A DNA stretch of 64,000 nt from Firmicutes bacterium UBA6811 (GCA_002452295.1 DKEX01000096.1:16349-80348), one strand, 5' to 3'. Positions 8,706 to 64,000 are shown, counted from the first letter of the stretch. The notes: generated by a model not told the origin, from the sequence alone. Numbers and translations are program-made.

Positions 8706-9926
8706 TTGGTCAGCGCAACGATCGAACTTTCAGGTCATATCATTGACTCCCGGATCCTCCCCAGGGTGATGGACGCCATCATGGACCTGGGCGGGGACTT
8801 CCACATCGAGGAGATCAGGGTCGGCAGAACCAAGCTGGACACGAGCTACGCAAGGATCGAGATCAAGGCGCCGACGCCGCAGGTGCTGGACGCCATCGTC
8901 GAAGAGGTGCAGGGCCTCGGTGCGACCGTCGTCGATCAGGACGAAGTGACTCTGGAAGCGGCGGAGCAGGACGGCGTCTTCCCCGAGGGCTTCTATTCCA
9001 CCACGAACCTGGATACCTTCGTGCGGGTGGCGGGGTCGTGGGTCCCCGTGCGCGACATCGAGATGGACTGCGGAATCGTGGTTGACCCCTCGTGCACGCC
9101 CCCGACCGCACGCTGCGTGCCGCTGCATCGCGTGGAAAAGGGCGACCTCCTGGTCGTCGGGTCAAGGGGTGTCAAGGTGGTCCCCCTGGAGAGGGCGAGG
9201 CACCGCGAGATATTCAGCTTCATGGGGAGCGCGGTCTCGAGCGAGAGGCCCAAGGCCCTCGTTGTCGAGGAGATCGCCAGGACCATGAAGGATGTCAGGG
9301 CGCGCGGCAAGAAGATCCTCGCAGTTGCAGGCCCTGCCGTCATTCACACCGGGGCGGGCAAACACCTGTCCGCGCTTATCGAAACTGGGTACATAAACGT
9401 GCTTTTCGCTGGGAACGCCGTGGCGGTCCATGATGTCGAGTGGGCGCTTTACGGCACATCCCTCGGCGTGTACCTCGAGAATGGGGCGGCGGCGTCCGAG
9501 GGCCACGCGCACCACCTGCGGGCCATCAACACCATCCGCAGGCTGGGCGGGCTTCGCGCCGCGGTGGAGGCGGGGGTGCTCAGGAAGGGTGTCATGCACG
9601 CATGTATAACGCACGGCGTGGACTATGTGCTCGCCGGCTCGATCCGCGACGATGGGCCGCTGCCCGACGTCATCACCGATACCGTGAAGGCGCAGGACGG
9701 AATGCGCCGCCGGATCAAGGATGTCGAGCTTGCTCTGATGCTGGCCACGATGCTCCACTCGATCGCCACAGGGAACCTGCTCCCGAGCCGGGTCAAGACG
9801 GTGTGCGTGGACATCAACCCCGCGACCGTGACCAAGCTCGGAGACAGGGGGAGCCTGCAGGCCGTCGGCATCGTGAGCGACGTGGAGTGGTTCCTGAAGG
9901 AGCTTGTGGGACGCCTCGCGAGCTGA
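8706..9926 (+). CDS. TIGR00300 / LOR-SDH-like protein (putative archaeal-type ornithine cyclodeaminase family)
   Basis: It is about 406 aa with an N-terminal small regulatory-like domain and a C-terminal saccharopine-dehydrogenase/LOR-like region (KILAVAGPAVIHTGAG...VLFAGNAVAVHD). The family assignment is from memory. Confidence 0.5.
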   Translation: MVSATIELSGHIIDSRILPRVMDAIMDLGGDFHIEEIRVGRTKLDTSYARIEIKAPTPQVLDAIVEEVQGLGATVVDQDEVTLEAAEQDGVFPEGFYSTTNLDTFVRVAGSWVPVRDIEMDCGIVVDPSCTPPTARCVPLHRVEKGDLLVVGSRGVKVVPLERARHREIFSFMGSAVSSERPKALVVEEIARTMKDVRARGKKILAVAGPAVIHTGAGKHLSALIETGYINVLFAGNAVAVHDVEWALYGTSLGVYLENGAAASEGHAHHLRAINTIRRLGGLRAAVEAGVLRKGVMHACITHGVDYVLAGSIRDDGPLPDVITDTVKAQDGMRRRIKDVELALMLATMLHSIATGNLLPSRVKTVCVDINPATVTKLGDRGSLQAVGIVSDVEWFLKELVGRLAS

Positions 9927-10183: not shown

Positions 10184-10594
10184 GAGAAAAAATGCGGGGC
10201 CAGCAGGCCTGAAGATGAAGAAGTCACCTCATCTCCCTGCAGGAGGTGAGGTAGAGGCGCGGCGCGCCATGAATAGGCATCCAGAGAAGGGCATCGCGGA
10301 GGGATGCCGAAAGGGGCCGCCGCCGAAGTCCCGCGCCCGGCCGGGGCGCAGGGCTGGGCCTGCATCGAAGAGGTGCAGGACTGTCACCGGGCATGTCTCC
10401 CTTGACCGCCCGGTGGAGCGCTATCTCACAGGGGGAAGGTGCTTCTTTTTTTCCCAAAAGCAGGTGAGTCGACGAGAAGGAGGGGGCGTGACAAAGTGGC
10501 ACATGATGCAGTCACTCATCGCGCATGGCAATTGGAGGGCCTTGAGAAATGCGGAGGAGACTCAAACGCGCGCCGTGACGCTTTTGCGGCAGAT

Positions 10595-12151
10595 ATGGCA
10601 GGCCTTGGCAGGGCATATGCAGCTTACCACAACCTTGCCGTCCCCAGGCTCATCGAAATGGCGGTCGCCCGCGGCGAGGGCGTGCTCACGAGCACGGGCG
10701 CGTTCAACGTGGTGGGCGGCAGATACACGGGCCGGTCCCCCGACGACAGGTTCATCGTCGACGACCCGAAGACGCGGGACGAGATATGGTGGGGCCCCGT
10801 GAACAGGCCGTTTCCGGAGGATGCGTTTGACAGGCTGCGCTGTCGGGTCGCCAGGCACTTGAAGGACAGGGAGTTGTTCGTGTTTGACGGGTTCGCCGGC
10901 GCGGACCCCGAGTATCGCCTGCCCATCCGCATCATCACCGAGCTTGCCTGGCAGAACGCCTTCGCGCAGCAGGTATTCCTGCGTCCGACCCCCGACGAGC
11001 TTCGGGCGCACGAGCCCCACTTCACGGTGATATCGGCGCCGGGCTTCATGGCCGTCCCCGGGCGCGACGGCACGAGGTCGGAGGCGTTCATTCTCATCAA
11101 CTTCGCACGGAGGCTCATCCTCATCGGCGGCACCCACTATGCCGGCGAGATAAAGAAGTCGGTTTTCAGCGTTATGAACTTCCTGCTGCCGCGTCGAGGC
11201 GTCTTCCCCATGCACTGCTCCGCCAACGTCGGCCCCGCCGGCGACGTTGCGCTGTTTTTCGGCCTGTCCGGCACGGGCAAGACGACGCTCTCCGCCGACC
11301 CGGCGCGCCGCCTCATCGGCGACGACGAGCACGGGTGGTCTGAACGAGGGGTCTTCAACATCGAGGGGGGCTGCTACGCGAAGTGCATCAGGCTCTCGGC
11401 CGAGAGCGAGCCGCTCATATACGAGGCCATCCGCTTCGGGACCGTGCTCGAGAACGTGGCCGTGGACCCGGACACACGCATGCCGGACTTTGCCAGTGAC
11501 GCGCTGACGGAGAACACCAGGGCGGGGTTCCCGGTCAGCTTCATCCCGGGTGCTGTGACGGGCGGCGTGGGCGGGCATCCTGGGGCGATCATCTTCCTTA
11601 CGGCCGACGCGTTCGGGGTATTCCCGCCTGTAGCGCGGCTCACGAGAGAACAGGCCATGTACCACTTCCTCTCCGGCTACACCAGCAAGCTCGCCGGCAC
11701 CGAGCGTGGTGTCACCGCGCCCCAGGCCACGTTCTCGACGTGCTTTGCAGCCCCGTTCCTGCCGCGCCCGCCGGTGGTGTACTCGCGGCTGCTGGGGCAG
11801 AAGGTGGAGGCCCACGACGTGCCGGTATACCTCGTCAACACCGGCTGGATCGGGGGGCCTTATGGAGTGGGTAGCCGGATCAGGATTCGCGATACCCGGG
11901 CGATTGTGTCAGCCGTCCTCGGCGGGGAGATGGAGAAGGTGCCGTCCAGCCCCGACCCGATCCTCGGCTTCGAGGTTCCGGAGGCGTGCCCGGGCGTGCC
12001 GCCGGAGATCATGAGGCCGCGTGCCGCCTGGGCGGACCCGAATGCCTACGACCAACAGGCCGCCGCACTCGCCCGCAAGTTTATCGAGAACTTCAAGCGA
12101 TTCGAGGACGCGCCACCCTCCGTCAGGTCAGCCGGACCCCGGCTGCCGTAG
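10595..12151 (+). CDS. pckA: Phosphoenolpyruvate carboxykinase (ATP)
   Basis: It has the kinase-1a motif [11 protein letters not shown] plus conserved blocks. The length from ATG 10595 is 518 aa. Confidence 0.9.
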
Positions 12152-24281: not shown

Positions 24282-24297
24282 GGAACTGGTCTTGCGA

Positions 24298-24405
24298 GCC
24301 GCTTCCCTACGCTGGTATTGCCCAGGCGGAGTCACCCGATCAGGTTCGAAGGGTAGGCGCCAGGTGGCACCTTCTCAGCCGCTTTCGCAGCACCCCCAGC
24401 GGACT
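24298..24405 (-). ncRNA. TPP (THI-box) riboswitch
   Basis: The minus-strand sequence GGGGGUGC...GGCUGAGA...ACCCUUCGAACCUGAUC...AAUACCAGCGUAGGGAAGC matches the conserved TPP aptamer core. Confidence 0.8.
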
Positions 24406-24428
24406 TCCGTGTGCACTTTTGCACCTTT

Positions 24429-44736: not shown

Positions 44737-46659
44737 TTAGACTGTAAAGGATCCCACCAGCTTTCGGAGGTCCGCTGCCAGCTCTGCGAGGCGGCTCGCA
44801 GAGCTGGTCATTTCGGCGACCGCTGCCGCCATTTCTTCAGTGGAGGTCGAGACCTGTTCTGCCGAGGCTGCCGTTTGGGCCGAGACCGAGGCCACGGCCT
44901 CCACGGCCTTTCGGACTTCCTCGCTTGCTGCAGCCATCTCCTCGGTCGCGGCTGTGTTCTCCTCGGTTATGCTGGCTGTACTCTCGATAGCCTTGATGGC
45001 CTGCGAGCTATGGGACGCCATCTCCTGTACCAGCACCGCGATGTTTTCGACCTCCGACGCGACGTGTGCGACGGCGTCCATTATGTCCGAAAGCGCCTGG
45101 CCCGCCTCTCCGGCGAGGGCGTTGCCGCCTGCCGCGTCGGCGGCCGTCACCTCCATGGACCTGTCGGCCGCCCCGGCGCTCTGTTGCATCTTGCTGACAA
45201 TGGCAGCGATTTCCTTGGTGGCCTCACTGGACCTCGTTGCGAGCTTGCCAACCTCGTCGGCGACCACAGCGAACCCCCTGCCGTGTTCGCCGGCCCTGGC
45301 TGCTTCTATCGCAGCATTCAGGGCGAGAAGGTTGGTCTGCTCGGCTATTTCGTCGATGACCTCAACGATGTTTCCGATCCTTGTGGAGTCCTCCCCAAGC
45401 TGGCCAGTGGCTCTTGCTGCCTCGCCAGTGAGGTCCGCGATCCTCCTCATGCTGACTATCGCCTTGCCCACGGCTTCCTTCCCGGAGAGAGCCGTGGCAC
45501 GCATGCCGTCAAACGCCCGGACAAGGGAATCCGCGCTCTTCGCCACCGCATCGATAGCGCTTACCATCTGCGAGACAGTGTTGCTTGCCTCCGTCACCGA
45601 CGCGACCTGGTCCTCGGCGCCCCTCGCTATCTGGTTTATGGCTTCGCCCAGTTGATTCATGGTCCTGTGGGTGTCATGGGCGCGGCGGGTCTGCTCTGCT
45701 GCTCCGCCGGCCACGTTCTGCATGATCCCGGTGATCTGGGTGGTCGAATCGTTCGCATCGGCGGCATTCTTCGCCAGGCTCTCGCCTGTTGAGGCAAGCT
45801 CGCGCGAAGACTCCCCGATCCGCGTGACTAGAGTCCTCAGGTTTCCAACCATGTCCGCGAACGCCCGAGACAGGACGGCGATTTCGTCGCGACTCCTGAC
45901 TGTGGGGACTTGTTGCGCGAGATTCCCTTTGGCGATCTCCGAAGCCACCCTCGTCAGCCTTGAAACCGGGCGGGTGATGCTCCACGTGATGGTGATTCCT
46001 GTAACCAGCCCTGCGAGGATGGCGATTGCCAGCCCTCCGAAGAGGATCATCCTGACCCGGTCGCTCTCGCTCCTGGCTGATGATACCTGCTTTGCGTGTT
46101 CCTTGCTGATAGAATCGATCCACTGGTCCGCGGCGGCGCTCAGCCTTGCGATGAGCGGCAGCCCCTCGGTGCGGATGAACTCGATGGCCTTCTCAGAGTC
46201 ACCAGCCTGGACCAGCATTTTGGCGATGTTCGCACGCGATCCGAAGCTGGTGTTGGCGTCGCCGAGTTCCTGGAGGTACCCTGCCATGCTGGTCTCGTCA
46301 GGCATCACGATGAGTATGTTGCGGATCTCCGCCTTGGAGGTCTCGTCCGCTGCTTCAAAGTCCTTGAGCGCCTGTTCGTCCTGGCTAAGCGCGTACGAAA
46401 GGATCGTCGCAGCTTTCTTCCACGTGGCGATTCGGAGGCTGTCGATGTGCTTCTGCAAAGGCACGCCGGACTCCAGAATCTGCGAGTACAGGCGCTCCTG
46501 CGCATGAATGCCTCGAATGCCGAGATAGGCTACAGCACCCATCAGGATCAGAAGCAACACGACCATGCCCATGATCTTCGACCCTATGCCCGACCGCAGT
46601 GCAAACCTCGGTCGCCAGAGTCCTGACAGGCGTTGGGCGAAGGCAAACCTGCTTCTCAT
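44737..46659 (-). CDS. Methyl-accepting chemotaxis protein (periplasmic sensor domain, HAMP, MCP signalling domain)
   Basis: It has two TMs flanking a ~190-aa periplasmic domain, a HAMP domain, and the conserved MCP hairpin region ([35 protein letters not shown]). Confidence 0.85.
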
Positions 46660-46962: not shown

Positions 46963-47219
46963 ACATACACAAGGGAGTCGCGCGTATTTCGGGGGTTGTT
47001 TCCACAGGCCTATAGCAGCAAGGACGGCCACACGCATTCCTGAACGACGTGGGTGGCGTGACACGTCGTCGCCATGGCCGTTGTGTGCATCGACCCGGCC
47101 GCGAGCGCTTTCGAGCGCGCCGTCGAACTCCCCGAGGTTGCATTGGGGCGAGGGTGGGAGACGTGACCCGGGAGAGACCTGCACATCCAGGCGTATTCAC
47201 GGGGCGTAACACGCCGATC

Positions 47220-48299
47220 ATGGACAACCTGTGGCTGTCGGCGGTTGTCGCGTGCATACTGCTTGGCGTCGCGTTCTTCGATGAGATCGAATGGCAGCCC
47301 GGGTCCTTTCCCGGGGCGCTCGCGGTGGCCGGGCTGGTCTACGGCTGGCTGAAACGCGTGATAGCGACCGCGGCACGAGGGCACGGGCTGTTGCTGGGCA
47401 TCCTGCTCACGGGCGCGGACATCGTGTTCATCGGAGCGACGATATACGTATCAGGCGGACCTGCAAGCCCATTCTGGCCCCTGTTTGCCCTGCCGATACT
47501 CGCGACCACGCTGAGGTTCGGGCTCAGGATGGGGCTCACGGCGACCGTCGTGGCATGCGGCCTCTCCCTTGCCGTGCTGGCAGCCGGGAGGTTCGCGCAC
47601 GGGCTTTCGGGGCTGAACCTCCTGAGGTTCATGTTCATGATCGCCATGTTCCTGCTTTTCAGCTTCTTCTTCGGCACCCTGGTGGAGGAGGAGAAGAAGC
47701 TACGTCAGGATATCCTCGCGCTCTCGAGAACCGACCCACTCACCGGGATCTACAACCACCGCTACCTCCTCGACGTCCTTCAGAGCGAGACCAGGCGAGC
47801 CGCCAGATATGGCGAGCCGCTGGCTGTGAGCATGATAGACCTGGATCTCTTCAAGAGCGTCAACGACACCTTCGGGCATCTCGTGGGAGACAGGATCCTC
47901 ATTCAAATGGTGGACACGCTGAAAACCACGTTTCGGGCCACCGACCACCTGGCCCGCTATGGAGGCGATGAGATAGTCGCGGTGATGCCGAAGGCGGCGC
48001 GCGAAGACGCCCTCGCCGCACTGGGAAGGGCCAGGGAGAGGATCGCGGGAGCGACCTTTTCAGGGCCGAACGGCCAGAGCCTGCGGATCACGATAAGCGC
48101 TGGAGCGGCCGTGTTTCCCGACCACGGCGGCGATGCCCTTACCCTCCTCGACATGGCTGACCGGGCGATGTACGTGGCGAAGAACTCCGGTGGCAACCGC
48201 GTTCAGTTCTATGACCCTTCCCTCTCCGATACCTCTGATGAGACGGCCCTCGAAGTTGCCTCGACCGCAGACCCGCGTCCAGAGCCGTCGATGACTTGA
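47220..48299 (+). CDS. Diguanylate cyclase (N-terminal 5-6 TM sensor domain plus GGDEF domain)
   Basis: It has an N-terminal polytopic membrane domain and a GGDEF active site RYGGDEIV with RxxD context. Confidence 0.85.
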   Translation: MDNLWLSAVVACILLGVAFFDEIEWQPGSFPGALAVAGLVYGWLKRVIATAARGHGLLLGILLTGADIVFIGATIYVSGGPASPFWPLFALPILATTLRFGLRMGLTATVVACGLSLAVLAAGRFAHGLSGLNLLRFMFMIAMFLLFSFFFGTLVEEEKKLRQDILALSRTDPLTGIYNHRYLLDVLQSETRRAARYGEPLAVSMIDLDLFKSVNDTFGHLVGDRILIQMVDTLKTTFRATDHLARYGGDEIVAVMPKAAREDALAALGRARERIAGATFSGPNGQSLRITISAGAAVFPDHGGDALTLLDMADRAMYVAKNSGGNRVQFYDPSLSDTSDETALEVASTADPRPEPSMT

Positions 48300-48360
48300 A
48301 CGTCACGGGAGGAGTTCCCGGGCGTCTGACGAAACTACACAGCAAAAGCGAAGAAGGAGG

Positions 48361-48852
48361 GTGGATGCCTTGGAGAAGGTCCTGCTAGTGGAGCACGAGA
48401 AGTGTACAGCGTGCCGCATCTGTGAGCTCGTGTGCTCGGCGAAACATGCGGGGGCGTTCAACCCCGCGAAGGCGCGGATCACCGTGGCGACGTTTCTCGA
48501 GGACAACTTCTTCTTCCCGCTCACATGCCAGCATTGTGAGGAGCCTCTCTGTCAGGATGTGTGTCCCACCGGTGCCATATCGAGACACCCTGAGACCGCG
48601 GCCGTCATCATCGACGATGCGAAGTGCATCGGGTGCAGAATGTGCCAGGCCGCATGCCCCTTCGGTGCCGTCTCCTACTCCCCGTCGGAAGACAAGGTGG
48701 TGAAGTGCGATCTGTGCGGCGGCGAGCCTGAGTGCGTGCTGTTCTGCCCGTGGGATGCGATCAAGTATACTAAGGCCGACGACGCTGCGTTGCGCAGGCG
48801 CAAAGCTGTGGGCGAGAAGCTCAAGAAGGCCCTGCAGGAGGTGAAGGTGTGA
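48361..48852 (+). CDS. Polyferredoxin with four [4Fe-4S] cluster motifs, AOR electron-transfer subunit (AorA-like)
   Basis: It has four CxxCxxCxxxCP-type motifs ([52 protein letters not shown]). It is immediately upstream of the AOR gene. The start codon is uncertain. Confidence 0.8.
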
Positions 48853-50657
48853 TGTACGGCTGGGTAGGAAAGACGCTTCGGGTCAACCTCAACGACAGGT
48901 CCGCAGCCGTCGAGGATCTGTGCCCTGAACTCGCCGAGAAGTACCTTGGAGCGAGGGGCCTGGGCACCAAGATCCTCTATGACGAGCTTGTGCCCGGTGT
49001 AGACCCCCTCGGCCCGGACAACAAGATCATCTTCGCCACCGGGCCTCTCACCGGAACAGCCGCCACGTCGGCCGGTCGGTACAACGTTATCACGAAATCG
49101 CCGCTCACGGGGTTTATCGCCGCATCCAACTCCGGTGGGTATTTCCCCGCGGAGATGAAGTACGCCGGGTTTGACGCCATCATCGTGGAGGGCGCTGCAG
49201 ACGAGCCGGTGTACATCTGGGTCCATGACGGCAAGGCCGAGATTCGGGCCGCAAAACACGTCTGGGGCAAGAACACCGCCCAGACCACCGATATCCTGAT
49301 CGGGGAGACTCACCCCGACGCGAAAGTCGCATGCATCGGCCCCGCCGGTGAGAGACTCGTGCTCTTTTCGTGCGTGGTGAACGAGAAGGGCCGCGCCGCC
49401 GGACGATCAGGGGTCGGCGCCGTCATGGGCTCCAAGAACCTGAAGGCCATCGTGGTGAGGGGCACAGGCGACGTGAAGGTGGCAGACCAGGCGAAGTTCA
49501 GGGAGGCGGTGCTGGCGGCCCTCAAGAAGATCAAGGAGGCGCCTGTTACCTCGCAGGGCCTCCCAACGTACGGGACAGCCGTTCTTGTGAACGTCATCAA
49601 CCAGCACGGAGCGTTCCCGACGCGCAACTTCCAGACAGGCGTGTTCGAGGGCGCCGAGAAGATATCCGGCGAGGCCCTTGCCGCCAAGTTTCTCGTGAGA
49701 AAGCGCGCGTGTTTCGGGTGCCCCATCGCCTGCGGGCGGCCGAGCGCCGTGAGGAGCGGCAAGTACCAGGGCGCGGGCGAAGGCCCCGAGTACGAGACCA
49801 TCTGGGCGCTGGGCGCGACCTGTGCCGTCGATGACCTCGAGGCCATAACCAAGGCCAACTACCTGTGTAACGAGCTTGGCCTCGACCCCATAACCATGGG
49901 CTCTACCATAGCGTGCGCCATGGAGCTATATGAGAAGGGGTATCTCCCGGAGAGCGCAACTGATATCCCGCTCAGGTTCGGCGACGCCGACGCCATGGTC
50001 GAGGCGACGCGCAAGACCGCCTACCGGGAGGGCATCGGTGACCTGCTCGCGAAGGGTTCGTACCGGCTCGCCGCGGAGTTCGGCCATCCCGAGCTATCCA
50101 TGAGCGCAAAGAAACAGGAGTACCCGGCGTACGATCCGCGTGGCGCGAAGGGCATCGGGCTCAACTATGCCACTTCTAACAGGGGCGGCTGCCACGTTAG
50201 GGGCTACACGATCTCGCCGGAGATCCTCGGTGTCCCGGAGAAGATAGACCCACTCTCCAAGGACGGGAAAGCCGCCTGGGTCAAGGCATTTCAGGACGTA
50301 ACCTCCCTTGTGGACTCGGTCGGCATGTGCCTGTTCACCACCTTCGCACTGGGCGCGCCCGACGTGGCGAGTATGCTCGAGCCTGCGACGGGGATCGGGT
50401 TCCCCACTGAGAAGGCGCTACTCGCGGGCGAGCGCATCTGGAACCTCGAGCGCCTCTTCAACCTGAGAGAGGGGCTCACGAAAGACGACGATACTCTGGC
50501 TCCGAGGCTGCTCACCGAGCCAATGCCGGAGGGGCCCGCCGCCGGGCAGGTGGTGGAGCTTGCCGACATGCTGGCGGACTATTACCGAGCCAGGGGCTGG
50601 ACTGACGATGGCAAGCCTTCGACGGAGACCCTGGACCGGCTCGAGCTCGCTGGCTGA
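48852..50657 (+). CDS. Tungsten-containing aldehyde:ferredoxin oxidoreductase (AOR family)
   Basis: It begins [14 protein letters not shown] (AOR N-terminal domain). It has pterin/W-binding blocks and Cys ligands for the [4Fe-4S]. It is 602 aa. Confidence 0.9.
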
Positions 50658-50713
50658 CACCCGCACGTCGGGTGCTGAGGGGCTGGCGCGAAGGGAGGGG
50701 GCGCCTTCTGCGG

Positions 50714-50986
50714 GTGCGGTTCTTCTTCTTCGTGAAAGAGGCGGCGGGTGAGGACGAGGTCTTCATCCCCGCGGAGGCGGCCCCCGACCTCGAGGCGCTC
50801 ATCCAGGTGTTGGTGGGGCGGTTTGGCGAGAGGTTTGCTCGCGAGGTGCTCACGAGCGACGGCGAGGTCCGGCGCGATGTCAACATCCTCGTGAACGGTC
50901 GTAACGTCCAGTTTCTGGCCGGGCCTGACACCAGGCTGAAGGACGAGGACACCGTGAGCTTTCTCTCGGCGGTCGCCGGCGGGTGA
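50714..50986 (+). CDS. MoaD/ThiS-family small sulfur-carrier-like protein ending in Gly-Gly (AorD-like)
   Basis: It is a ~90-aa beta-grasp-like sequence with a C-terminal ...AVAGG stop. The GTG start at 50714 follows a GGGAGGGGG RBS. Confidence 0.5.
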   Translation: MRFFFFVKEAAGEDEVFIPAEAAPDLEALIQVLVGRFGERFAREVLTSDGEVRRDVNILVNGRNVQFLAGPDTRLKDEDTVSFLSAVAGG

Positions 50987-51167
50987 CCAGGCGGCCGCCC
51001 GGTCCGGACCTGCCCGGACCGGGCCGGAGCCGATGTCCCGTCAGGTGGCGGAGCTGTGTCCCGGGGGCTGCGCGGCACCGGCGCAGTCGTAGCTGCAGGC
51101 AAAGGCATTGCCCGTGTACAAGCGCTGATGTCTGCGTTCGGATGGGCATACGTTGGGGGGAAGTCCT

Positions 51168-52427
51168 ATGAAGTACGTGATCCTTGGAAACGGCCCGGCG
51201 GGCGTGAGCGCCCTCGTAGCCATCCGGGAGCTGGACCCGGCCGGGGAGATCACGGTGGTGTCGCCGGAGACCTGGCGCTACTACTCAAAGATCCTCCTGA
51301 CCCGCTGGATCGCGGGAAAGGTGCGGTTCCCCAATCTCTTCCTGGCCGGCGAGGGCTTCTATGACCGCAACGGCGTGAAGACCCTGTTCGGGGTGGCCGC
51401 GACCCGCATCGACCCGGAGAGGCCGGTGGTCGAGCTCTCTAACAGGCAGCGACTGGATTACGACAGACTGCTCCTGGCGATGGGAAGCTCTCCTCAGGTG
51501 CCTGACATCCGCGGCATAAGGCTTCCCGGCGTCCACTATCTGAGGACGTTCGACGATGCGGAACGGATCGCCCTGGCCGCACCGTCGGCCCGACGGGCTG
51601 TGGTGATAGGGGGCGGCCTCGTCAGCCTCAAGACCGCGGAGGGGCTCCTCGCGCGGGGCCTCGAGGTATGGGTGGTCGTGTCGTCCGATAGGCTGCTATC
51701 GCAGATCACCGCGCCGGAGGATTCCGAGGCGGTGCTCCGGATCTTCCAGGGGCCGCCCGGGCTTCACATCGTCCTGGGGTGCGATGTCAGCGAGCTCGAG
51801 GGCAGGGGGCGGGTCGAGGAGGCTCACCTCAGCACGGGTGAGAGGGTCGAGTGCGACATCGTCGTGGTCGGCAAGGGCGTCACGCCGAACATCCTCGTCA
51901 CGCGCGGCACCGGGATCGCCACGGCGCGCGGGGTCATCGTCGACGGCAGGATGCAGACCAGCGTTCCCGGGATATACGCAGCCGGCGACATTGCCGAGTG
52001 TTACGACATCGCCCGCGGGAAGGCCGCCCTCAACGCGCTCTGGTCGAGCGCCGTGTGGCAGGGCAGGGTGGCGGGTTACAACATGGCGGGGCGGGATGTG
52101 TCATACGCCGGTGACGTGGCCCTGAACTCCGTCACGTTCGGCGGCGGGTGCGTTGTGGCCCTGGGGCGGCCCCGCCCCGAGGCAGGCGACGAGGTGCACA
52201 CGTTGGCCGGCAAGGGCGGCGGCGAATACGCGCGGCTCGTGTTCCGCGACGGCCGGCTTGTGGGGGCCGTGCTCACCGGACGCGCGGTGGAGACGGCCGG
52301 GGTGCTTCGCAGCCTCATCGTGCGGCAGGCCGACGCGACTCCGATCATGGACAGGCTGCTGGGCGGCAGGACGTCATACCCCAGGATTCTGAATCTGAAG
52401 CTGTCGGTGTCAGGGATTGCTTCCTGA
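51168..52427 (+). CDS. FAD-dependent NAD(P)H oxidoreductase (pyridine nucleotide-disulfide family, ferredoxin/rubredoxin reductase-like; AorC-like)
   Basis: The FAD site is YVILGNGPAGVSA and the NAD site is AVVIGGGLVSLKTAEGL, with IYAAGDIAE. Confidence 0.75.
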   Translation: MKYVILGNGPAGVSALVAIRELDPAGEITVVSPETWRYYSKILLTRWIAGKVRFPNLFLAGEGFYDRNGVKTLFGVAATRIDPERPVVELSNRQRLDYDRLLLAMGSSPQVPDIRGIRLPGVHYLRTFDDAERIALAAPSARRAVVIGGGLVSLKTAEGLLARGLEVWVVVSSDRLLSQITAPEDSEAVLRIFQGPPGLHIVLGCDVSELEGRGRVEEAHLSTGERVECDIVVVGKGVTPNILVTRGTGIATARGVIVDGRMQTSVPGIYAAGDIAECYDIARGKAALNALWSSAVWQGRVAGYNMAGRDVSYAGDVALNSVTFGGGCVVALGRPRPEAGDEVHTLAGKGGGEYARLVFRDGRLVGAVLTGRAVETAGVLRSLIVRQADATPIMDRLLGGRTSYPRILNLKLSVSGIAS

Positions 52428-52541: not shown

Positions 52542-52760
52542 CTAGACGGCCTCCACCCGCTTGACCTCGGGCACCTCTTCCTTGAGCGCCCGCTCAACGC
52601 CGTTCTTCAGGGTCATCATGGACATCGGGCACCCGACGCACGCGCCCGTCAGCCTCACCTTCACCACGCCATCGTCGACGCTGACGAGCTCGACGTCGCC
52701 GCCGTGGGCCTGTAAAGCGAACCTGATCTTCTCCAGCGCCTTCTCGATCTTTTCCTGCAA
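52542..52760 (-). CDS. NifU-like Fe-S cluster scaffold/carrier domain protein (Nfu)
   Basis: It is 72 aa with the conserved CVGCPMS motif. Confidence 0.75.
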   Translation of the reverse strand: MQEKIEKALEKIRFALQAHGGDVELVSVDDGVVKVRLTGACVGCPMSMMTLKNGVERALKEEVPEVKRVEAV

Positions 52761-55410: not shown

Positions 55411-58400
55411 GTGAAACCTCGTATCGCGCGATCGATACCTTACGCGGTTGCGGCGCTCGCGGCGGCTGCGGCGCTCGCGTTTCTCGCAAGGCCGCTTTCT
55501 GCAGATAGCGCCGATAAGGGTTACCTTTACATGTATACGGAGGAGAGGGTATGGGCGCCTTCCGAGCACCCGTCCGTGATAGTCCGAGGTCGGAGCGCGA
55601 CGCGGATTGACTTCACAGTGTGGAGGTTCAACCCCATCACGCAATACCAGGCGCGTGGGTCGCTGCACTCGGCCGCGGAGGCCCTACCTCAGGGCGGGGC
55701 GGTGCTGGTGAAGAGGCTCACGGAGTATCCGCGCCCGAACAAGCGGGGTGGGGACTACACTTTGAGGGTGCCCGTGCCTGCCGACAGGGTCGCGGGCTAC
55801 GTCGTGAAGGCGCGCGACAGCCACGGCCGCGAGGACACCACGTGGATCCTCGTGACCGACCTCGGCCTCGTGACGAAGCAGGCGCAGGATAAGCTCCTCG
55901 TGTACGCCCACACCTTTGGCAAGGACGCGCCGTGCGCGGGCGCGAAGGTCGCCGTGTACAGCGAGGGCAAGGAGGTCGGAAGCGGAACCACAGGGGGCGA
56001 TGGCCTGTGGGTGCTGAACGCCCCGGGCCTTGCAAAGGGCCTTTCGGTGGTCGGGACGGCAGGCGAGAGCTTCGCCCAGGTGACCTCGTCCTACTACTGG
56101 GAGGACTCCCGCTACAAGGCGTACATCTACACCGACAGGCCCGTATACCGGCCGGGCCAGCGGGTGTTCTTCAAGGGCATCCTCCGCGACGAGGACGGCG
56201 GAGACTACAAGGTGCTCGCGGGCGAGCCCGTCCGCGTGGAGGTGCGTGACGCGCGCGACGCGTGCATCTACAAGACCGAGGCCACGACGAACAGCTTCGG
56301 CTCATTCACCGGCGATCTCGTGCTCGGGGACGAGCCGGCGCTCGGCGTTTGCCGGGTGCTCGCCACGGTGAGGGGGAGCACGCACTCGGGCGCGTTCAAG
56401 GTGGCGGAGTACCGCAAGCCCGAGTACCAGGTGCAGGTGGAAGTGCCGAAGACCACGTACGTGGCGGGCGACGAGGTCCCGGTGAGCGTGAAGGCCGCCT
56501 ACTACTTCGGCGCGCCAGTCCCAGGTGCAAAGGTCAAATACGCCGCGTACTCCCAGCCGCACTACTTCTCGTACTACTCCTTCGAGGACCTTGGTTACTA
56601 TCCGGTCGGCGACGAGGACTTCGGGTACTACGGCGAGCTTGTGGCGTCCGGCGAAGGCGTGACGGACTCAAGTGGGCGCATGTCGTTCGCCATCAAGACG
56701 CAAAAGGCGGACACGACGAGGAAGATGTTCATCGAAGCGGTCGTGACCGACGAGAGCAGGCGCGAGGTCACGGGCAGAACCTCGGTGATCGTGGCGCGGG
56801 GGCTGTTCGACGTGAGCGTGCAGCCGGCGGCCTACGTGGTGGAGCCGGGCAAGCCTGCCACCGTGCGGGTGAAGGCCGAGACCATAGAGGGCAAGCCGCT
56901 TGCCGTGCGGCTCGAGTGGCAGGCCGTGCGCCGGACATGGGAGAACAAGAAGGCCAGGCGGTGGAAGGAGGCGTCGGGCGCGCTGCGCACGGCGGCCGAC
57001 GGGACGGGGAGCTTTGAGTTCACGCCGCGCGAGGAAGGGTCCTACGTGGTGGAGGTCGCCGGGACCGACGAACGCGGCAACCGGATCGTCTCCGAAGCGT
57101 ATCTCTGGGTCACGAGCGGAGCGAGCCGCTGGGCGAGTTACGGCGGCACCGAGATAGAGATCGTGGCCGACAAGGACGTGTACGAGATCGGGGACACGGC
57201 GAAGATCCTCGTGAACACCACGCTCGACGACGCGTGGGCGGTGGTGACGGTCGAGGGGCGCGACCTTGCCTCGCACGGGGTGGTCCACATCATGGGCCAC
57301 ACGAGGCTGTTCGAGGTCCCCATCACCCGGGAGCACCTTCCGAACGCGTTCTTCACCGTGACGATAGTCCGCGGGAAGAGGCTCTTCTCCAGGGAGAAGA
57401 CCATCTATGTGTCGACGAAGGACAACTACCTGAACGTGGCGATCATTCCGAACAAGGAGACCTACGGTCCCGGCGACAAGGCTACCTATGTGGTGAAGAC
57501 GACGGATGCGGCGGGCCGCCCGGTGCAGTCCGAGGTGTCGCTGGGGGTCGTGGACGCATCCATATACGCGATCCAGCCGGAGATGGCGCCCGACATAAAG
57601 AAGGCGTTCTACGGGTCCATCTGGAACAGGGTGGTCACGAGCTATTCGTTCCCGGAGTGGTATTACGGAGGTGCCGACAAAGTCGGCGGGTCGGCGGACG
57701 TGAGGAGGAAGTTCGAGGACACGGCCTTCTGGAATCCCACCATCGTGACGGACCGAAACGGCACCGGGAAGATCGAGTTCGTCATGCCGGATAACCTCAC
57801 GACGTGGCGGGCGACCGCGAGGGCCCACACCCTCAAGACCCAGGTGGGGTCGGCGACTCGAGACGTGGTGACGACCAAGGACCTCGTCGTGAGGCTTGCG
57901 ACGCCGCGCTTGTTCACGCTGGGCGACCGGACGGCGGTCTCGACGATCGTCCACAACTACACCGGGCGCAAGATTAAGGCGAAGATCACTCTCAAGGCCG
58001 AGGGTGTCACGCTGAAAGATGCGGGCGAGCGCGAGGTGGAGCTTGGCCCCATGGGCCAGGCCTCGCTCGACTGGAAGGTTGAGTGCGGCGAGGTCGGAGT
58101 CGCACGCTTTGCGGCGTCGGCCCAGGCTGACGTCGGACGGGCGCGGGACGCGCTTGAAATGGGCGTGCCGGTGCTGCCCTTCGGTAGGCGGCACGAGCGA
58201 CACGAGGCTGGCGAGGTGGGCGGCGATGCCGCTAGCGGCGCAGGGGCCGGGAAGGCGCTCGTCAGGTTCGATGTGCCAGAGGACGCGCTGCCTGGCACGG
58301 TCGACGTGAAGGTGCGGCTCGCGCCATCGGTTGCGGCCGCGGCCCTGGGGGCTCTCGAATACCTGGCGTCGTTCCCGTACGGGTGTGTGGAGCAGACCAT

Positions 58401-60531
58401 GAACTCCTTCCTGCCCGACGTGGTGGTGGCCTGGACGCTAAAGGATCTCGGGGTGGAGGCGCCGCCTGAAGTCGAGCAGGACCTGCCGAGGATGGTCTCG
58501 GCGGGCCTCGCGAGGCTCTACCGCTACCAGCACTACGACGGAGGATGGGGCTGGTGGGAGTACGACCAGACGGACCCGAGGATGACCGCTTACGTGGTAT
58601 ACGGCCTCGACCTTGCGCGGAAGGCGGGGTTCGAGGTGGACGGCCAGGTGCTCGCGCGAGGGAAGAGAGCGCTTGTCGAGCTTGCTGGTAGGCCGCGCGA
58701 CGTGGACGACCTCGTATACAAGCTCTACGTCATGTCCGAGGTGGGCGAGAGGAGCCTTGCGAGGCTCGACGAGATGGTGGCGAGGCGGCTCGAGCTTTCC
58801 GAATACTCGCTTGCGCTCCTCGTGCTTACTCTCGACAACGTGGGCCGGGCCGATGATGCCAGGGAGGTGCTCCAGGATCTCCTGGCGTCGGCGCGGGGCG
58901 ACGACATGCTCACCTACTGGGACGCGCCGGAGGGCGAGCGGTACTGGGCGGACAACCGCGTGGAGACCACGGCGTACGCGCTCATGGCGATGCTTGCGGT
59001 GGACCCCGGGAACGAGAAGGTCCCGGGAGCGGTGAGGTGGCTTGCGGACGCGCGGCAGGGCAAGGCATGGTTCTCAACCAAGGACACCGCCGTGGCCGTG
59101 TTCGCGCTGGCGGAGTACCTGAAGCTACGCGACGAGGTCGCGCCGAACTACACCGCTACCGTCAGCATCAACGGAAAAGATGTCAAGAAGGTGCATTTCA
59201 CCAGAAAGGACGTCTTCGGGAAGGAGATCGAGGTCAGCATAGACGCGCGCGACCTTGCGCGCGGGCAGAATGAGATCACCATCGCGAAGGACGGCGGGAA
59301 GGGCAGGCTGTACTACACGTTCTCTTGTGAGTACTACACGGCTGCGGACTCCGTGGCGCCCGAAGGGCAGGGCCTCGCGGTGACCCGGGGCTACTACCGG
59401 AGGGCCCCGGCGCCGGCCGCTGCCGGGCGCGAGAGGCGCGAGGACGGAAAGACGCGCGGCGGTGAGGAGAAGCCGGAGTACGTGTACGAACCCGTGACCG
59501 GCGCTGTGAAGCCGGGCGAGGAGATATACGTTCGCATAAACATCAAGGCCGATAGCCCGTATACCTATATGATCATCGAAGATCCGCTCCCGTCGGGCTT
59601 CGAGACTTCGGATGAGCCGATCGACGTCTATAGCTGGCACTTCTCGTACGGCAGGAAGGAGGTCCGCGACGAGAAGGTGGCCTTCTTCAGCGGCTACCTG
59701 AAGGAGGGCGAAGACGAGATCGTGTACCCCATACGAGCTGAGCGGCCCGGGGATTACCGGGTCATGCCGACGCGGGTGTGGGGCATGTACTCGCCTGACG
59801 TCTTCGGCCAGTCGGCAAGCTCGGAGATCTCCTGCAGGGAGCCGGTGCTTGCGAGCTTCTCCACGACGCTCAAGGACCCGGAGGAGAGCCGCAACTACAA
59901 CGTTGCGCTGGCTGCGGCCGCCATCGACGGAGTCGTGCTCCAGCCGGGCGAGGAGTTCTCCTTCGACCGGGTCGTAGGGCCGAGGCTCGCGGAGGCCGGC
60001 TACAGGAATGCGCGGGTGATCTCCGGAGGCAAGAGCGTGCCGGGGATCGGCGGAGGGGTATGCCAGGTGTCGACGACCCTCTACAACGTGGCTCTCCTCG
60101 CCGGGCTCGAGATCGTCGAGCGCCACCCGCACTCAAGGCCGGTTGGGTACGTCCCGCCCGGGCTTGATGCTACGGTGGCCGAAGGCCAGTACGATCTCAG
60201 GTTCCGGAACACGCTTGGGGTGCCGCTGACGCTGGGCGCCCGCGTGGACGGGAACAGGTTGCTGATGGAGGCGCGGGCGCCTCTCGCGGAGGCCCCGGAG
60301 GTGCGCGTGACCACTGAGGTCCAGGGGACCGAGAGGCCGAGGCTCATCGGCGGGGTCGGTGCGGGCACCACGGGCGCTGTGGCCGAGCCGGGGGGGCCTG
60401 CCTACGGAGGCGAGAGCGGCATCCGCGTTGCAGTGTGGAGGAGTTTTTCCTCAGGCGGCGAAGCCACAAAGGAGCTGGTATCCGAGGATTATTACAAGCC
60501 GGTGCACGCGGTGGCCTCGTCGGTGCGGTAG
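55411..60531 (+). CDS. Secreted alpha-2-macroglobulin family protein with intact thioester (GCVEQ), fused to a C-terminal VanW domain
   Basis: It has a signal peptide and multiple MG domains. The thioester FPYGCVEQTMNSF is at about aa 990. The C-terminal VanW block is GGKSVPGIGGGVCQVSTTLYNVALLAG. It is 1706 aa. Confidence 0.8.
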   Translation: MKPRIARSIPYAVAALAAAAALAFLARPLSADSADKGYLYMYTEERVWAPSEHPSVIVRGRSATRIDFTVWRFNPITQYQARGSLHSAAEALPQGGAVLVKRLTEYPRPNKRGGDYTLRVPVPADRVAGYVVKARDSHGREDTTWILVTDLGLVTKQAQDKLLVYAHTFGKDAPCAGAKVAVYSEGKEVGSGTTGGDGLWVLNAPGLAKGLSVVGTAGESFAQVTSSYYWEDSRYKAYIYTDRPVYRPGQRVFFKGILRDEDGGDYKVLAGEPVRVEVRDARDACIYKTEATTNSFGSFTGDLVLGDEPALGVCRVLATVRGSTHSGAFKVAEYRKPEYQVQVEVPKTTYVAGDEVPVSVKAAYYFGAPVPGAKVKYAAYSQPHYFSYYSFEDLGYYPVGDEDFGYYGELVASGEGVTDSSGRMSFAIKTQKADTTRKMFIEAVVTDESRREVTGRTSVIVARGLFDVSVQPAAYVVEPGKPATVRVKAETIEGKPLAVRLEWQAVRRTWENKKARRWKEASGALRTAADGTGSFEFTPREEGSYVVEVAGTDERGNRIVSEAYLWVTSGASRWASYGGTEIEIVADKDVYEIGDTAKILVNTTLDDAWAVVTVEGRDLASHGVVHIMGHTRLFEVPITREHLPNAFFTVTIVRGKRLFSREKTIYVSTKDNYLNVAIIPNKETYGPGDKATYVVKTTDAAGRPVQSEVSLGVVDASIYAIQPEMAPDIKKAFYGSIWNRVVTSYSFPEWYYGGADKVGGSADVRRKFEDTAFWNPTIVTDRNGTGKIEFVMPDNLTTWRATARAHTLKTQVGSATRDVVTTKDLVVRLATPRLFTLGDRTAVSTIVHNYTGRKIKAKITLKAEGVTLKDAGEREVELGPMGQASLDWKVECGEVGVARFAASAQADVGRARDALEMGVPVLPFGRRHERHEAGEVGGDAASGAGAGKALVRFDVPEDALPGTVDVKVRLAPSVAAAALGALEYLASFPYGCVEQTMNSFLPDVVVAWTLKDLGVEAPPEVEQDLPRMVSAGLARLYRYQHYDGGWGWWEYDQTDPRMTAYVVYGLDLARKAGFEVDGQVLARGKRALVELAGRPRDVDDLVYKLYVMSEVGERSLARLDEMVARRLELSEYSLALLVLTLDNVGRADDAREVLQDLLASARGDDMLTYWDAPEGERYWADNRVETTAYALMAMLAVDPGNEKVPGAVRWLADARQGKAWFSTKDTAVAVFALAEYLKLRDEVAPNYTATVSINGKDVKKVHFTRKDVFGKEIEVSIDARDLARGQNEITIAKDGGKGRLYYTFSCEYYTAADSVAPEGQGLAVTRGYYRRAPAPAAAGRERREDGKTRGGEEKPEYVYEPVTGAVKPGEEIYVRINIKADSPYTYMIIEDPLPSGFETSDEPIDVYSWHFSYGRKEVRDEKVAFFSGYLKEGEDEIVYPIRAERPGDYRVMPTRVWGMYSPDVFGQSASSEISCREPVLASFSTTLKDPEESRNYNVALAAAAIDGVVLQPGEEFSFDRVVGPRLAEAGYRNARVISGGKSVPGIGGGVCQVSTTLYNVALLAGLEIVERHPHSRPVGYVPPGLDATVAEGQYDLRFRNTLGVPLTLGARVDGNRLLMEARAPLAEAPEVRVTTEVQGTERPRLIGGVGAGTTGAVAEPGGPAYGGESGIRVAVWRSFSSGGEATKELVSEDYYKPVHAVASSVR

Positions 60532-63125: not shown

Positions 63126-64000
63126 GTATCACCCATGCTCCGTTGGCGGGCTCCGGGCGCATGGGCGCCATGGGAGTCAGAAAATGGCATCGGCTGCTGC
63201 ACGCGTCCAGGTTTGACGCATAGCGGTCCGTATGATAGAATAAGAATTACCAAAAACCAAAACGGCCGATGAGGACCAGCCGATCCGCTTGAACGCTGAA
63301 TTCCCATCTGTGGGAAGCGGGGGACCCAACTCTTGGGGCTAATCCCGGCGGTCGGGGCCTGTGGGCCGCGTGTCGGGGAGACGCATCATACCCGTTGTGC
63401 TTCTCCCGCATGACACGCGCCGCACCCGCAGCGCACCGCCCCGGGACGGGTCAGACTCTTTCGATCCGAGCCCGTCAGCTAACCTCGTAAGCGTGGGAAG
63501 AGGAGGTGGGTTGGGTGGAAGCCTTTCGACCATGGCATGGACGGTCCATGTCCGTCGATTGTGGCTTCACCCAGGGAAGACCCACCCTGGGTGATTTGCT
63601 TCCCTCTCCCTCTGCCACTTCGTTGTCCTTCCTCAGCGGATGGTGTGAAACGGCCGCAACCGCCGCAAGGCGCAGGTAACGCAACACGTGGGCGCGACGA
63701 GTCCATGCGCCCATGTGGGCCCGCGTCGGCCCCGCGCTCAGCTTACCCTGCGTCGTGCGAGTTGCACTGACGAGAACGGCGATCCGGTTCGAGCCGCCGG
63801 CCACGCGCCGCGCGCGCGAGAACACCGGTTGTCGCCCCCGGGCATTGCATTGCCCGAAAGACGCAACAGGGCGGCGGTTTGTGCCCGCGGTGCGGCTTCC
63901 GCTCGAGAGGCGGAACTCATGCAACGGAGCGGCGTCTGGTCCTCGGCGAAAGAGCGAGGAGGGAACGAGATGAGGTTCGAAAACAGGTTCTCAGTGCTGG

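Follow-up and report, generated by a model that had tools for sequence, protein, structure and literature searches.

A putative operon for a tungsten-dependent aldehyde oxidoreductase (AOR) was analyzed within a 64,000-nucleotide stretch of DNA (referred to below as the window) from Firmicutes bacterium UBA6811 (GCA_002452295.1 DKEX01000096.1:16349-80348). The open reading frame (ORF) listing over 44-57 kb, combined with Pfam and NCBIfam scans, showed that positions 48361-52427 contain four co-directional plus-strand genes. The order proposed in the preliminary description of this DNA (a polyferredoxin, an AOR, a MoaD/ThiS-like protein ending in Gly-Gly and a flavin adenine dinucleotide (FAD)/NAD oxidoreductase) was upheld by the domain scans, which recovered all four genes:

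48370..48852, + strand: aorA / worS, 160-amino-acid (aa) polyferredoxin electron-transfer subunit; Fer4_11; start TTG 48370
48852..50657, + strand: aorB / worL, 601-aa tungstopterin catalytic subunit of the AOR family; AFOR_N and AFOR_C; start ATG 48852
50714..50986, + strand: MoaD/ThiS-like 90-aa protein (= aorD / 'worX'); ThiS; start GTG 50714
51168..52427, + strand: aorC / worN, 419-aa FAD-containing NAD(P)-binding subunit; Pyr_redox_2; start ATG 51168

The gene starts were set from public gene calls on the identical contig of a metagenome-assembled genome (MAG) and from the positions of ribosome-binding sites in the sequence, while the coordinates given originally were those of the longest ORFs (aorA from GTG 48361, the MoaD-like gene from 50672 and aorC from TTG 51153, with lengths of 163, 602 and 424 aa for aorA, aorB and aorC, respectively). 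The ribosome-binding site of aorA, GAAGGAGG, lies at 48352-48359 and ends 10 nt 5' of TTG 48370, and the public call for this gene is also 160 aa long. The start of aorB overlaps the stop of aorA by 1 nt (TGATG), by which the two genes are translationally coupled; the MoaD-like gene and aorC are separated by a GC-rich spacer of 181 nt (50987-51167). The assumption of a Firmicutes-like host proved correct: SpoIIE, TilS and FtsH are encoded in the window, pointing to a Bacillota origin, and the nearest relatives are uncultured Bacillota MAGs. The G+C content of the window is 60-69%, and a 100% identical flavoprotein (P0001) in an identical gene neighborhood is present in public assemblies, including the NCBI MAG GCA_002441185.1.

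The catalytic subunit AorB contained both domains of its family at full length (AFOR_N, 1.2e-83; AFOR_C, 5.9e-157; Pfam). Among the solved structures its best match was WorL of Acetomicrobium mobile (9mqx_D, 819 bits), followed by the P. furiosus AOR (PfAOR, 1aor, 722 bits), 9g7j (678 bits) and the Aromatoleum AorB (8c0z_A, 647 bits), with much lower scores for the Haloferax WOR83 (434 bits), FOR (324 bits), BamB (228 bits) and WOR5 (223 bits), while the NCBIfam model of GAPOR gave only 41 bits. Because of this order of scores and the low GAPOR value, AorB is by sequence an AOR sensu stricto (WOR clade 87), and not of the FOR, GAPOR, WOR5 or BamB type. Its identity reached 61% with the A. mobile WorL, 56% with PfAOR and 54% with the Aromatoleum AorB. 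In the alignment with the four closest solved enzymes all the tungstopterin-site residues were conserved (T242, E315, Y427 and H448, corresponding to T243/E313/Y427/H448 of PfAOR, with Glu331, Tyr443 and His464 as the equivalents in the Aromatoleum AorB), as were the four ligands of the [4Fe-4S] cluster (Cys287/290/294/493, corresponding to C288/291/295/494 of PfAOR); the list of site residues for W-pterin enzymes was taken from PMC13328260 and PMC10413684.

The polyferredoxin AorA belonged to Fer4_11 and related families (E 4.6e-17, Pfam) and contained 16 Cys arranged in four CxxCxx(xx)Cxxx C(P) motifs, a content that is, judged by the motifs, sufficient for four [4Fe-4S] clusters. The best solved matches were the A. 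mobile WorS (9mqx_E, 5e-38, 134 bits) and the Aromatoleum AorA (8c0z_C, 8e-35), and the alignment with both continued through their C-terminal helix region, which mediates filament formation in these two proteins (PMC10413684, PMC12318220). The tail of AorA beyond the last Cys-Pro comprises 33 residues, compared with 31 in the Aromatoleum AorA and 27 in the A. mobile WorS, with only a weak similarity of its sequence to the helix regions of 8c0z_C and 9mqx_E. Since the tail is similar in length to those of the two filament-forming homologues, a chain of (AorAB)n units capped by a single AorC is plausible by analogy. The AorA homologues of Moorella, such as that of Moorella thermoacetica DSM 21394 (L018, 5521-5994), and of the Neomoorella loci also possess a tail of 32 residues past the last Cys-Pro. 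As read from these sequences, this is at odds with the statement in a recent review that the Moorella protein (AorA_Mt) has no C-terminal extension and hence forms no filaments (PMC12096430); nanowires may thus form in the Moorella-type enzymes as well.

The flavoprotein AorC is a Pyr_redox_2 protein (5.6e-51, Pfam) with a single FAD and without any Fe-S domain, and its GxGxxG motifs lie at residues 7-12 (FAD) and 146-151 (NAD(P)). Among the solved proteins it was closest by sequence to the Aromatoleum AorC (8c0z_E, 1e-54 over residues 6-401; 37% identity in a global alignment), the next one following at 4e-35. The AlphaFold model, built from a 42-sequence alignment (mean predicted local confidence, pLDDT, 91.8), also had 8c0z_E as its top Foldseek hit (template-modeling score, TM, 0.88; root-mean-square deviation 2.5 A; 407 columns), with generic ferredoxin-reductase folds scoring almost as high. 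The FAD subunit was therefore found to be AorC-like by sequence, by fold and by its conserved synteny described below. CoA-disulfide reductases and NADH oxidases, which belong to the candidates considered for AorC, carry a redox Cys in the N-terminal segment; residues 36-48 of AorC (ETWRYYSKILLTR) contain no Cys, and this identity was rejected. Membership in the PadH and PadI families was also discarded, as the scores were below the cut-offs (PadH, the highest NCBIfam score, 278 bits against 475; PadI, 95 bits against 700 and over the N-terminal third only). PadH and PadI, subunits of the NADH-dependent phenylglyoxylate dehydrogenase, are relatives and not orthologues of AorC. In public annotations AorC appears as 'NAD(P)/FAD-dependent oxidoreductase' or 'nitrite reductase large subunit'.

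The small protein encoded between aorB and aorC is a member of the ThiS family (8.8e-12, Pfam) with the C-terminus ...SAVAGG. It passed the NCBIfam model TIGR01687 (moaD_arch, 'MoaD family protein') with 59.4 bits at a cut-off of 49.5 and remained below those of SAMP1 (51 versus 60 bits) and of the bacterial MoaD equivalog (17.8 versus 66 bits); it aligned with archaeal-type MoaD and SAMP proteins, and its best PDB match was 2m19, 'molybdopterin converting factor subunit 1' (2.4e-07). MoaD-like genes are also represented by aorD and aorE in Aromatoleum (PMC6365974), and the ThiS-like 'WorX' gene is listed in the 2026 classification with the function 'unknown, predicted pterin biosynthesis' (PMC13328260). 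The most likely function of this protein is that of a dedicated sulfur carrier or maturation factor in the synthesis of the tungsten cofactor, and not that of an enzyme subunit. The scanned ORFs of the window included neither a MoaE nor a ThiF gene, whereas ThiF-like genes were found together with AOR in 11 other loci.

For the comparative analysis, an AOR protein scan of 185,579 species-representative genomes yielded 415 relatives, and the best 80 loci of the 415 were kept and compared using tblastn with the window proteins and clustering of every neighboring ORF. An AorA homologue was located directly upstream of AOR in 75 of the 80 loci and an AorC-like gene downstream of it in 26, while a MoaD-like gene ending in Gly-Gly was found downstream of AOR in 45 loci and upstream in 20. 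The terminal GG was present in 63 of the 66 AOR-linked MoaD-like homologues, which accompany N-type, BF-type and small-subunit-less AOR genes alike; the MoaD-like gene is best read as tied to the catalytic subunit, whatever the electron-output module.

A neighbor-joining (NJ) tree of AorB (600 columns, 100 bootstraps) was constructed from the 80 genomic homologues and four solved references, the sequences of the latter being transcribed from HMMER alignments with a few terminal residues missing. The window AorB was placed in a clade of 23 members (bootstrap 94) consisting of uncultured Bacillota MAGs (80-91% AorB identity) together with Moorella thermoacetica, M. mulderi, Neomoorella spp. and Thermanaeromonas (68-69%), and the order aorA-aorB-moaD-like-aorC was present in all 19 clade loci not cut by a contig end. 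It did not fall among the ferredoxin-only AORs: the loci lacking the small subunit grouped with the P. furiosus AOR and 9g7j, and the BF-type and N-type loci were interleaved over the tree. The Aromatoleum AorB (8c0z_A) was located outside the 23-member clade on a long branch. Over 25 loci, the identity to the window co-varied between AorB and AorA (r = 0.99) and between AorB and AorC (r = 0.97), as is expected of proteins evolving together. The NJ tree reproduced the published placement of the Moorella enzyme (AOR_Mt), long known as a three-subunit relative branching between the 'bacterial' and 'archaeal' AOR groups (PMC6365974, PMC12096430). Accordingly placed by its sequence, AorB belongs to the Moorella-type lineage of the clade-87 WORs, within which the window represents a distinct, deeper sub-branch composed solely of uncultured high-GC Bacillota MAGs.

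Taken together, the four genes probably constitute a single operon that encodes a cytoplasmic tungsten AOR of three subunits (AorABC / WorLSN, 'Class III WOR', clade-87 'type N') and includes one cofactor-maturation gene. The AorABC-type reading is supported, among other things, by the solved nanowire complexes 8c0z and 9mqx, which supply the closest or second-closest solved homologue of each of the three subunits. The resemblance to the Aromatoleum AorABC pointed out in the preliminary description held for the three homologous subunits and for AorC, with 8c0z_E as its best match, and failed for AorB, which stands outside the Aromatoleum subclade. While the gene products, their homology and their conservation were observed directly, the reaction sequence is modeled on the solved Aromatoleum and Acetomicrobium complexes. 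The W-bis-pyranopterin site of AorB would oxidize a hydrated aldehyde to the corresponding carboxylic acid with participation of Glu315, Tyr427 and His448; the two electrons would pass through the [4Fe-4S] cluster of AorB into the four clusters of AorA and further to the FAD of AorC, where the pyridine nucleotide would be reduced. The physiological role is likely a broad-range detoxification or oxidation of aldehydes, while acids could be reduced only if low-potential donors were available.

The identity of the pyridine nucleotide depends on the end of the second beta strand (beta2) of the nucleotide site in AorC. At this position the window protein has V-V-V171-S-S-D-R (strand 166-170 in the model) and the Aromatoleum AorC V-V-E171-M-G-D-R, with Glu171 aligned to Val171, while the AorC of the Moorella clade has V-V-S-S-G-R. 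In proteins of this fold, acceptance of NADP is classically determined by the loss of the acidic residue of beta2, and the switch mutants of BphA4 (E175/T176R/Q177G) and LbNOX (D177A/A178R/M179S) reportedly target the same segment; both proteins were among the structural neighbors of the AorC model in the Foldseek search. Because Val-Ser-Ser stands in place of Glu-Met-Gly, a pattern shared with the Moorella homologues, the acceptor of the window AorC is predicted, by analogy and with modest confidence, to be NADP(H) or, in a dual mode, NAD(P)+. For the Moorella enzyme an NADPH oxidoreductase activity was reported, according to the title of Strobl 1992 as cited in PMC6365974 and PMC10221389.

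It is possible, though rather doubtful, that the same AorABC-type complex is strictly NAD+-specific as in Aromatoleum, whose AOR reduces NAD+ and not NADP+ (PMC6365974, PMC9295118) and which provides the sole biochemically characterized Class III WOR (PMC6365974). Arg175 and the GxGxxG motif, common to the window and Aromatoleum AorC, would fit such a specificity. The exchange of Glu171 for Val followed by Ser-Ser speaks against it, particularly as it recurs in the Moorella homologues, for which the cited title names NADPH oxidoreductase activity, and so does the location of the reported BphA4 and LbNOX switches in the same segment. In the alignment of 27 AOR-linked flavoproteins (L001-L079), the beta2 Glu was kept only by the Aromatoleum AorC and by one other protein (L023), and four proteins (L062, L066, L075 and L079) had an Arg at the position after the beta2 Glu site. 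Judging from these sequences, many 'Class III WORs' may be NADP-linked, though the class is tabulated as NAD+-dependent; the missing NAD-determining Glu in the Moorella-type lineage and in several other AOR-linked flavoproteins thus bears on the 'NAD+' description of the class. The use of NADP, if true, would also matter for biocatalytic acid reduction and cofactor recycling with such enzymes.

Several points weigh against the NADP(H)-linked AorABC complex as proposed here. Tungsten incorporation, the formation of the complex and of filaments and the electron acceptor are all inferred, and none of tupABC, moa or moe was present among the 28 Pfam-scanned ORFs of the 64-kb window; a molybdenum or tungsten cofactor (Moco/Wco) riboswitch was likewise missing when all 64 kb were scanned with Rfam at gathering scores, as only lysine, thiamine pyrophosphate (TPP) and c-di-AMP riboswitches were detected, none of them near the operon. 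The 181-nt gap in front of aorC leaves space for its own transcription. The sequence of AorB resembles those of the bifurcating A. mobile WorL and the monomeric PfAOR more than that of the Aromatoleum AorB, and therefore the assignment to the 'N' architecture rests on the gene context and not on the AorB sequence alone. Two FAD contacts of the Aromatoleum AorC, Arg41 and Gln294, are replaced by Lys41 and Trp292 in the window protein. The NADP call itself comes from the loss of one acidic residue combined with analogy; Arg175 is present in the NAD-specific Aromatoleum enzyme as well and is thus non-discriminating, and the origin of the Moorella enzyme purified in 1992 from the homologous operon is assumed, following PMC6365974.

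The separation of aorC from aorB by the non-conserved 181-nt spacer and the MoaD-like gene would also fit a ferredoxin-linked two-subunit AorAB enzyme (Class II WorLS), with the flavoprotein as an unrelated NAD(P)H oxidoreductase located nearby, such as a rubredoxin/ferredoxin reductase or a nitrite-reductase-like protein; the generic Pyr_redox_2 fold, in which many ferredoxin reductases are nearly equal, and the public names of the protein are in favor of such an arrangement. It is nevertheless improbable, since AorC matched its Aromatoleum counterpart 20 orders of magnitude better than the next solved protein and is encoded downstream of aorB in every uncut member of the clade, even where its identity has decreased to 39-48%, with the correlation to AorB mentioned above (r = 0.97). 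Furthermore, the closest non-AOR relatives of the flavoprotein also adjoin a polyferredoxin of the CooF type, so that pairing with an AorA-like protein looks like a trait of the family.

A nanowire operating from two ends, with the AorC cap exchanging electrons with NADP(H) and the free end of (AorAB)n with ferredoxin, is very improbable. If true, it would couple NADPH and reduced ferredoxin to carboxylic acid reduction in uncultured digester Bacillota by a mechanism other than Bfu or, alternatively, split the aldehyde electrons between two acceptors. A weaker and more probable version of this idea is that most of the 'Class III WORs', including that of the window, are NADP- and not NAD-linked.

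Least credible is an electron-bifurcating AOR that oxidizes aldehydes with simultaneous reduction of ferredoxin and NAD(P)+, like WorABCSL of A. mobile and E. limosum: despite the closest sequence matches of AorB and AorA being subunits of the bifurcating A. mobile complex 9mqx (819 and 134 bits) and despite the mixing of BF- and N-type loci in the AorB tree, the known bifurcating WORs need a BfuABC = WorABC module (NuoE-like, NuoF-like and HydA/NuoG-like; PMC12318220, PMC13328260), and Bfu-type genes were absent both from the gene calls in the 10 kb on either side of the operon and from the larger window ORFs scanned. Such a label was assigned next to worSL in 29 of the 80 related loci (NuoE-like cluster in 31, 2Fe-2S cluster in 30), and in no uncut member of the 23-sequence clade was a Bfu-type neighbor detected. 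In addition, AorC carries a single FAD and lacks an Fe-S domain, its characterized homologue is non-bifurcating, and reduction of NAD(P)+ by an aldehyde is in itself a strongly exergonic reaction. The suggestion that the enzyme is 'NAD(P)-coupled or possibly bifurcating' was therefore retained in its first part, owing to the AorC-type subunit and with NADP likelier than NAD, and abandoned in the second, with no Bfu/NuoEF-like genes detected beside the operon. Two further placements were rejected, namely a Class I ferredoxin-only AOR of the PfAOR type, as aorA is present, the Fe-bridge residues of the PfAOR dimer (Glu332/His383) are absent from AorB and replaced by Lys334 and Val383, and the aorA-less loci cluster elsewhere, and the Aromatoleum-type 'bacterial AOR' subclade (AOR_Aa sensu Arndt 2019), as 8c0z_A is outside the clade and the window protein lacks the beta2 acidic residue.

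Of the known systems, the window operon had most in common with that of the Moorella thermoacetica AOR ('carboxylic acid reductase', AOR_Mt) and its relatives in Neomoorella and Thermanaeromonas, with which it shares the gene order aorA-aorB-moaD-like-aorC, the AorB clade, the Val-Ser-Ser signature of the nucleotide site and the length of the AorA tail. The identity to the Moorella-type proteins amounted to 68-69% for AorB, 57-63% for AorA and 39-48% for AorC; AorC is thus rather diverged (<50%), and the window differs from these loci by its position in the deeper MAG-only sub-branch. For the Moorella enzyme, too, the quaternary structure has yet to be established according to PMC12096430. The Aromatoleum aromaticum AorABC (8c0z), which forms the Aor(AB)nC nanowire, resembles the window system in its three homologous subunits, cofactor motifs, MoaD-like gene and AorA tail. 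In contrast to the window, where a single MoaD-like gene precedes aorC, its gene order is aorABCDE with two MoaD-like genes after aorC (PMC6365974); AorB and AorC are 54 and 37% identical to those of the window, respectively, Glu171 of the strictly NAD-dependent enzyme stands opposite Val171, and the host is a denitrifying betaproteobacterium, in contrast to the anaerobic-digester-type Bacillota MAG of the window. The Class IV bifurcating WorABCSL of A. mobile (9mqx) showed the highest similarity in the catalytic and polyferredoxin subunits, with the AorA tail of the window aligning to the region of its C-terminal WorS helix, but possesses a WorABC (Bfu) module where the window has the AorC-type flavoprotein.

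Earlier catalogues already include the WorL-WorS-WorN architecture together with a neighboring ThiS-like gene, and the Moorella operon, with its identical gene order, has been known for decades. The 'type N' of clade 87 was defined as WorSL plus an FAD/NAD(P) subunit and accounted for 26% of 444 sequences (PMC12318220), and 'Class III WorLSN' comprises 179 proteins in 9 clades, of which the Aromatoleum enzyme alone is characterized (PMC13328260). To this class with one characterized member the window adds a well-defined, deep-branching sub-lineage of high-GC uncultured Bacillota.

The nearest non-AOR relatives of the window AorC (38-44% identity, i.e., about as close as the Aromatoleum AorC) were located in clusters of the carbon monoxide dehydrogenase (CODH) type (L084, 3499-7263; L085, 5001-8560; L086, 1630-3972). 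In the CooS-CooF-FAD/NAD(P) clusters of Desulfosporosinus acidiphilus the flavoproteins (P0059 and P0019) adjoin a CooF-like Fer4_11 polyferredoxin, similar to AorA, and a Prismane/CooS gene; the catalytic subunit there is a Ni-CODH (Prismane) and not a tungstopterin AOR. A third relative (P0027) is encoded on a short contig, where its neighbors are a Crp-type regulator and a CooC-like gene of the CbiA/ParA family and where neither CooF nor CooS was called. The combination of a polyferredoxin with an FAD/NAD(P) reductase therefore looks, from the sequences and their neighborhoods, like an output module common to W-AOR and Ni-CODH.

Regarding the regulatory elements of the operon, no convincing sigma-70 promoter was found directly upstream of aorA, and terminator-like hits were at chance level (4 found versus 3.3 expected). 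The spacer between the MoaD-like gene and aorC holds a perfect 13-bp hairpin (GGTCCGG...CCGGACC region). It was rejected as an RNA element, its fold being no better than those of shuffled sequences (z = -0.55), and as a conserved element, neither its length nor its sequence being kept in eight relatives. The remaining features recognized in the window were the following:

10244-10431, + strand: lysine riboswitch RF00168, 116.7 bits (Rfam)
24287-24407, - strand: TPP riboswitch, 57.1 bits, barely over the gathering score (Rfam)
44737-46659, - strand: methyl-accepting chemotaxis protein, upstream of aorA
47049-48299, + strand: GGDEF diguanylate cyclase, with its stop ~70 nt before the aorA start
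52542-52760, - strand: NifU-like gene, 72-aa NifU domain (PF01106, 4.7e-32)
55411-60531, + strand: 1706-aa bacterial alpha-2-macroglobulin-like protein with bMG3, MG2, A2M, TED and bMG10 domains and a C-terminal VanW
63284-63507, + strand: c-di-AMP riboswitch, 77.5 bits, near the window end (Rfam)

The NifU-like gene, described initially as divergent, is actually convergent with aorC, the two genes standing tail to tail with a 114-nt spacer. Like the LysM/BsuPI and AMMECR1 neighbors, it kept its position in none but the closest MAGs (L001-L009) and was missing in the Moorella-type loci; in view of this limited synteny, a functional link of these genes to the AOR module was rejected in favor of general genome synteny. 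The chemotaxis and GGDEF genes were similarly syntenic in the closest MAGs (L001-L005, L037) and not in Moorella. The lysine riboswitch lies 3' of a LOR/SDH-ArgZ-like gene (8706-9926) and directly 5' of an ORF with a full PEPCK_ATP domain (10439-12151); pckA is an unusual target for a riboswitch of this class. The gene for the alpha-2-macroglobulin-like protein is split in two genes in another assembly of the same organism.

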